Shown here in pieces: positions 31,320-31,632 of a stretch of DNA of 64,000 nt (positions are counted from its first letter, which is position 1; each line of letters opens with the position of its first letter). Source of the stretch: Escherichia coli. GTDB lineage: Bacteria > Pseudomonadota > Gammaproteobacteria > Enterobacterales > Enterobacteriaceae. The translations under genes and the position numbers were made by a program. Location: assembly GCF_965641715.1 (NCBI RefSeq), contig NZ_OZ282453.1; one strand, written 5' to 3'. The notes beneath the pieces are model-generated. The model ran no database searches. It saw nothing but the letters and a program-made list of their open reading frames with translations, and was not told the DNA's origin.

Positions 31320-31331
31320 AAGTATGCACAC

Positions 31332-31360
31332 GGGCAGCACGACGCTGCCCGATTGCTTTC
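31332..31360 (+). terminator. Hairpin downstream of dapD (putative terminator)
   Basis: gggcagc acgac gctgccc followed by gattgctttctgg; T-tract is weak. Confidence 0.4.
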
Positions 31361-31632
31361 TGGTTCAGAATAATTCGTCCTACTCATTCTTCCTCCCCCT
31401 TTTTTAAATACTTTTTCATCTTGTTTCGGACTGTCATGTAATTCGCAAAACGAAGATAAATGTGCTAATCCATCCCATGGAATATCGCCACAATAAAGCA
31501 GGTAATTTTTTGATTTTTACGCCATGATAGAAGTCTGGAAGAAAAAGGCTTTCTGCGATCACAGTCGAGCCGGGCGGGCAAGGCCAAATGCTAAAATAAG
31601 CACAATTTACTGACTCATTTTGAGGTAACGCT

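Follow-up and report, generated by a model that had tools for sequence, protein, structure and literature searches.

In K-12, the genes dapD and yaeH are separated by yaeI; in the stretch of Escherichia coli DNA analysed here (64 kb in total, hereafter called the window) the two genes are separated by a spacer of exactly 313 bp (31320-31632). The question raised by this locus is whether yaeI was deleted in this particular strain, or whether the strain carries another natural allele of the site. A preliminary description, made from the sequence and by reference to the K-12 map, had proposed either that the lineage naturally lacks yaeI as an accessory gene, or that a second deletion is present in the strain. 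Comparison with other genomes indicates that the window very probably holds a common natural yaeI-less allele of the dapD-yaeH region, likely resulting from an old loss.

Gene content of the dapD-yaeH interval

The genes surrounding the spacer, with the coordinates of dapD and yaeH taken from the list of open reading frames (ORFs), are the following:

27792-30464: glnD
30495-31319, plus strand: dapD, tetrahydrodipicolinate N-succinyltransferase, 274 aa, intact
31633-32019, plus strand: yaeH, DUF3461 family protein, 128 aa, intact
32108-33283, minus strand: cdaR
33420-34844, minus strand: degP

The DapD protein of the window is 99.6-100% identical to those of K-12 and CP53, and its YaeH protein is identical to WP_000272188.1 of the same two strains and scores 244 bits on the NCBIfam model NF010213 (cut-off 150). 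A literature search on yaeH and DUF3461 gave almost solely unrelated uses of the acronym. The dapD stop (31319), the yaeH start (31633) and the 313-bp gap are the same in the ORF list as in the preliminary description, and the distance of 30 bp between glnD and dapD is indeed the K-12 value. In K-12 MC4100 and MG1655, yaeI (813 bp, 270 aa) lies between dapD and yaeH in a spacer of 1027 bp, in agreement with the gene of about 0.8 kb and gap of about 1.0 kb given in the preliminary description; flanking genes, order and orientation in this dapD-yaeI-yaeH arrangement (b0166-b0164-b0163) are those of the window.

That the spacer contains no ORF of meaningful size is essentially right according to both the mechanical ORF list and RefSeq. 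The ORFs that touch it are one of 77 aa on the minus strand (31434-31667, overlapping the yaeH start), one of 40 aa on the same strand, and out-of-frame ORFs running out of dapD, and no RefSeq annotation was found within the short spacer in any of 40 sampled genomes.

Sequences were considered as YaeI using the NCBIfam equivalog NF008460 / PRK11340 (cut-off 188 bits) and the Pfam metallophosphoesterase family PF00149, K-12 YaeI scoring 531 bits on NF008460. No ORF or fragment of the window has similarity to YaeI, and none could be assigned to the family. The tblastn search with YaeI that had been suggested as a check was run on the 64-kb window and returned no YaeI-like sequence at E<=1e-5, either in the spacer or relocated in the rest of the window, and tblastn and blastn searches of the whole window with six divergent yaeI alleles, at E<=10, gave noise only. 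yaeI is absent, being neither relocated within the window nor pseudogenised in place. A copy elsewhere in the source genome is improbable by analogy, because both alleles of the site are essentially single-copy and together cover nearly every genome. YaeI is a metallophosphoesterase with a twin-arginine-type N-terminus (predicted Tat signal) and distant similarity to LpxG, and the expected functional outcome is a strain that would be devoid of this non-essential enzyme.

Structure of the 313-bp spacer

Alignment of the window with K-12 placed the left breakpoint at 31354/31355 and the right breakpoint at 31482/31483. The 128 bp in between (31355-31482) have no counterpart in K-12, which has approximately 843 bp there (yaeI start region, the 813-bp yaeI and a short linker) where the window has unrelated sequence. 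The difference between the two alleles is a replacement, and not a simple indel or a clean deletion. The features of the spacer are the following:

31320-31354, plus strand: dapD 3' trailer with a predicted intrinsic-terminator hairpin (the K-12 alignment ends at 31354)
31355-31462, no strand assigned: segment specific to the short allele, 108 bp, 36% G+C, single-copy, absent from K-12
31387 down to 31316, minus strand: 23-aa Cys-containing ORF, overlapping the dapD terminator and stop codon
31463-31513, plus strand: decayed remnant of orf236, last 16 codons and stop (tblastn and DNA alignment)
31483-31632, plus strand: yaeH upstream region, promoter and leader (the K-12 alignment resumes at 31483)

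The trailer is common to all Escherichia alleles, with or without yaeI, and K-12 shares with the window both this hairpin region and the 150 bp before yaeH (98% identical). The stem-loop (31331-31351; 8 pairs, 7 of them G-C) was picked up by the terminator scan with a minimum free energy of -21.3 kcal/mol (z = -3.7), and its stem forms in the window as in K-12; it is followed by AUUGCUUUCU, an interrupted U-tract, in the window vs U7 in K-12. An Rfam search of 30400-32200 (E<=10) gave sub-threshold matches only, located on this terminator, and the two candidates among them, a miRNA model and sroE (21 bits, below its gathering score of 51), were rejected as chance matches.

The yaeH upstream region, with a Shine-Dalgarno sequence GAGG at about 31621, is 92-99% identical to yaeI-bearing Escherichia alleles (blastn), the allele of strain D10 being divergent (87% over 139 nt). 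In K-12, RpoD holoenzyme binds the spacer between yaeI and yaeH (PMC3946193), and yaeH of the window keeps the 150-bp upstream region in which this binding was mapped; no sigma-70 consensus site was detected when 31200-31750 was scanned for promoters. With the terminator hairpin kept by dapD and the promoter and leader kept by yaeH, both neighbours should be expressed normally.

The remnant at 31463-31513 was identified by comparison with orf236, a 236-aa orphan gene located between yaeI and yaeH in Escherichia sp. MOD1-EC7003 (locus L023, 2172-2882) and in E. coli GF43 (locus L092, 3015-3725), where it is annotated as a hypothetical protein (WP_157916455.1). Searches of orf236 against Pfam, NCBIfam, PADLOC and PHROGs assigned it to no family. 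Residues 221-236 of its product match window 31463-31510 at 69% identity (tblastn), with an in-frame TAA at the second codon, and in the DNA alignment 31463-31482, adjoining the shared boundary, matches at 14 of 20 nt and 31483-31513 is near-identical. Compared with the dapD-yaeI-orf236-yaeH allele of MOD1-EC7003 and GF43, the window thus shares the last 16 orf236 codons in decayed form and everything downstream, and lacks yaeI and the first 220 orf236 codons. The last 9 "orf236" codons found in K-12 were also considered as a proof that K-12 is itself a deletion derivative, which is not demonstrable; this argument was dropped because the same sequence occurs in all alleles that have yaeI alone, and partly in Superficieibacter. 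orf236 may read into pre-existing sequence.

The 108-bp segment contains a polypyrimidine tract (about 31388-31405) whose length varies among strains. The region 31346-31465 was aligned locally, on both strands, with yaeI and orf236 alleles, and the scores lay within the shuffle distribution; on these alignments, the 108 bp appear to have no detectable source among yaeI or orf236 alleles. No FRT or lox scar was seen on reading the segment. The same spacer architecture is found in O157:H7, O55:H7, 536, Nissle 1917, IHE3034 and ST131, which are among the carriers of the short allele, and in CP53. Carriers are 94-100% identical to the window over the allele-specific segment, from which they differ by point changes and by the length of the polypyrimidine tract only; over 1.2 kb the closest to the window is CP53 (99.7%), along with O157/O55:H7-like strains.

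One alternative is that the filler is functional, as a gene for the 23-aa minus-strand ORF or for an antisense or small RNA, in which case the polymorphism would be an exchange of two functions. The ORF is preceded, 4 nt before its ATG, by a purine run GGGGGAGGAAGA that strongly resembles a Shine-Dalgarno sequence, and 9 of 10 short alleles, that of Escherichia sp. E1V33 among them, have it intact; in addition, the 34 nt at 31406-31439 are invariant in the alleles that were aligned (9/9). However, the purine run is the complement of the slippage-prone polypyrimidine tract and varies in length, reading GGGGGAAA in 536 and Nissle, the 3' half of the ORF corresponds to the opposite strand of the dapD terminator hairpin, and strain BS-04 does not have the ORF. 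Its non-synonymous codon changes are at least as numerous as the synonymous ones (e.g. 4 vs 3, 6 vs 2), and the segment as a whole has neither a promoter-like site nor an Rfam family, nor any RefSeq annotation in the sampled genomes. A functional filler is consequently considered as very unlikely, and the 23-aa ORF is not supported as a small protein gene, given that it shows no sign of purifying selection and that its Shine-Dalgarno-like tract is variable. The broader proposal, in which the dapD-yaeH junction would be a small, long-lived site of gene turnover with alleles that cross species and are maintained by selection, and with a filler possibly functional itself (it might act through the 23-aa minus-strand ORF or as a yaeH regulatory element), is likewise held to be highly doubtful.

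Distribution of the alleles and comparison with the fhuA deletion

Allele frequencies were determined on the 5426 complete E. coli genomes of RefSeq, and the locus was found in 5424 of them using megablast with 30900-32100 as the query. In an evenly spaced sample of 40 rows of the megablast ranking, 25 were collinear with the window and yaeI-less (O157:H7 among them) and in 14, those of K-12, C600 and a B strain among them, yaeI interrupted the match. Over the whole set, yaeI is present in 2084/5426 genomes and the short-allele stretch 31346-31482 in 3338/5426, once per genome. Since these counts sum to 5422 of the 5424 genomes having the locus, yaeI and the short spacer look in effect like two alleles of a single site that exclude each other. 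The allele of the window is that of the majority, found in about 61% of complete genomes (a value that is not a population frequency, RefSeq complete genomes being a biased sample), and K-12 represents the minority state.

An allele was regarded as a natural accessory one when its junctions recur in many independent isolates and the alternative allele is exclusive at the site, which is the case here. A second criterion was an independent report of the gene as lineage-enriched, and a pan-genome study lists yaeI as an accessory orthologous group with significant enrichment in phylogroup A (PMC5422975). Of the two explanations initially proposed, a lineage naturally lacking yaeI is thus the one borne out by the counts (3338 short alleles vs 2084 with yaeI) and by this published report. 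The absence of yaeI is an ordinary, already-known kind of accessory-gene polymorphism.

A recent deletion of yaeI private to this strain, either spontaneous or engineered, had some plausibility in that the window does contain one private deletion, so that the strain could be a selected or manipulated derivative. That deletion removes 734 bp inside fhuA (45878-47387, minus strand), corresponding to K-12 167564-168297, with its junction at 47307/47308; the frame shifts after about 27 codons and reaches a stop at codon 42, which would be expected to abolish the receptor for T1, T5, phi80 and ferrichrome. Because its junction is contiguous in 0/5426 complete genomes, the fhuA deletion is truly private to this strain. 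In contrast, 3338 complete genomes of unrelated origin have the yaeI-less segment and both of its junctions, a representative of a non-coli Escherichia species carries the short allele too, the difference from K-12 is a 128-bp replacement and not a deletion, and the orf236 remnant is diverged (14/20 nt) and AT-enriched, indicating age. The test for a private or engineered deletion therefore singles out the fhuA deletion, which serves as a positive control, and does not single out the yaeI-less spacer. The suggestion of a second deletion does not hold against junctions common to thousands of genomes, and a strain-private loss of yaeI is regarded as extremely improbable. The probability of an assembly artefact, i.e. 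a collapse or mis-join that removed yaeI, is practically nil: the identical arrangement occurs in thousands of independently finished genomes, no repeats that might lead to a collapse flank the site, and the sequence of the filler is unique.

K-12 is thus not typical of E. coli at dapD-yaeH, the apparently missing gene being absent from about three-fifths of finished genomes, and a departure from the K-12 map should not be called a deletion before it has been compared with the pan-genome of the species. One and the same junction test separates here a shared natural allele (the yaeI-less spacer) from a private deletion (fhuA).

The window is collinear with K-12 216705-157308 at 97.6-99.7% identity, and it is closest to O157/O55:H7-like strains, MB53 and CP53 (99.3-99.7%), being neither K-12 nor B. 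Over 24 kb (20000-44000), identity to complete E. coli RefSeq genomes does not exceed 99.4%, the best being MB53 and O157:H7/O55:H7, so the source strain or lineage is not among the 5426 complete genomes. Other differences from K-12 concern repeats: K-12 has an extra repeat in the rpsB-tsf spacer (about 133 bp, inverted CTCCCCC/GGGGGAG ends; window 25826-25837), another in the pyrH-frr spacer (about 145 bp; window 23931-23935), and REP-like palindromes that take up about 155 bp of the hemL-fhuB spacer, vs 32 bp in the window (42127-42160). Similarity to K-12 ends at 57563 (K-12 157308, near folK and yadN), and the last 6.4 kb of the window (57564-64000, on the yad fimbrial side) gave no K-12 alignment by megablast.

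Direction of the allelic change

In Escherichia, the interval from the dapD terminator to the yaeH leader is filled in at least four different ways:

Filling 1: yaeI alone (K-12, B, E. albertii, E. whittamii)
Filling 2: yaeI and the 236-aa orphan gene (rare)
Filling 3: 128-bp non-coding filler, giving the 313-bp spacer (this window, O157:H7, phylogroup B2 strains)
Filling 4: 297-bp variant (rare)

The orf236 allele occurs in 1/5426 complete E. coli genomes (GF43). Filling 4 is a further rare yaeI-less allele, found in BS-04 (locus L003, 1475-1771; 297-bp spacer), in which the polypyrimidine region is expanded and rearranged and the orf236 remnant (28 nt) is deleted.

Outgroups were scanned using YaeH as the query with one genome per species, which returned 80 loci (E. 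fergusonii, Salmonella and Shigella not being among them). In about 70 of the 75 non-Escherichia loci, the gap between dapD and yaeH is approximately 110-125 bp and contains no yaeI; in the others, dapD lies at a greater distance, is divergent, or was not contained in the fetched DNA. Like the window, these other Enterobacteriaceae (among them Citrobacter, Klebsiella, Enterobacter, Raoultella, Kluyvera and Cedecea) have no gene between dapD and yaeH, and the dapD terminator is followed by the yaeH leader. Their compact spacers (about 107-122 bp) are nevertheless homologous to one another and unrelated to that of the window, which they resemble solely in the last 15-20 nt or so before the yaeH ATG. 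All Escherichia alleles share a terminator and a yaeH leader of their own, different from the compact type. In the compact spacers (loci L012, L026, L033 and others) the terminator hairpin is followed by a strongly conserved block, TGGCG-N(~14)-TTTTTTCGTTAATTATTCA-N-GGTTA; this block, presumably the ancestral promoter or operator of yaeH, is entirely lost in Escherichia.

Outside Escherichia, a yaeI orthologue (64-67% identity) was found at the same place in Superficieibacter electus and in a relative, and the yaeH leader of the window is homologous to the Superficieibacter yaeI-yaeH spacer at 31493-31534 (E 3e-5) and 31583-31632. The Escherichia species representatives that carry yaeI are E. 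albertii, E. whittamii, MOD1-EC7003 and one labelled E. coli; Escherichia sp. E1V33 has the short allele at 94% identity. YaeI orthologues of at least 81% identity bear Escherichia labels where they are named, except for one Salmonella enterica entry, and the next relatives are at 45-69% identity.

The distribution could also be explained by a primary absence, i.e. a 313-bp spacer ancestral in Escherichia, into which yaeI (with or without orf236) was inserted later, replacing the 128 bp. Nearly all other Enterobacteriaceae are without yaeI at the locus, the patchy distribution of YaeI and the distance of its next relatives (45-69%) fit a horizontal acquisition, and the 108 bp at 31355-31462 are unrelated to yaeI. 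However, the spacer of the window is not of the ancestral type of about 110 bp, its stretch homologous to the 3' coding end of orf236 exceeds what alleles with yaeI alone share, its yaeH leader is of the type found downstream of yaeI in Superficieibacter, and yaeI is present in the more distant Escherichia that were sampled (E. albertii, E. whittamii, MOD1-EC7003). A primary absence is thus considered as unlikely. Parsimony, applied to the few Escherichia species representatives, makes an old secondary loss the probable origin of the short allele, which is favoured by the cassette-type yaeH leader, the Escherichia terminator, the orf236 remnant and the presence of yaeI in other Escherichia; none of the sampled yaeI alleles would give the short allele by a clean deletion. 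Under a secondary loss, the Escherichia ancestor would have carried the yaeI cassette, with or without orf236, and the short allele would have arisen long ago through the loss of yaeI and of nearly all of orf236. Vertical descent, together with homologous recombination via the core genes on either side, could then have maintained or spread it. This history of the allele (cassette-type leader, orf236 remnant, compact ancestral spacer) is a minor addition to what pan-genome tables hold on yaeI.

The yaeI alleles themselves are unusually divergent within E. coli. Identity to K-12 yaeI is at least 99% in 1440 genomes, 95-99% in 308, 90-95% in 261 and 80-90% in 75; yaeI of BL21 is 94.2% identical and that of D10 87%. 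This divergence points to old lineages of alleles, or to introgression from other species of Escherichia. In E. coli EC0026B (locus L005, 1501-3534), yaeI is cut at codon 178 by an insertion whose first genes encode an integrase-domain protein and a DUF3644 protein, so this site can also receive a mobile island. The next intergenic region, yaeH-cdaR, is another variable junction in the neighbourhood, and in Superficieibacter and its relative (L095, 5619-8579; L096, 5711-8671) a gene encoding a 986-aa M60 peptidase / mucin-binding protein lies between yaeH and cdaR.
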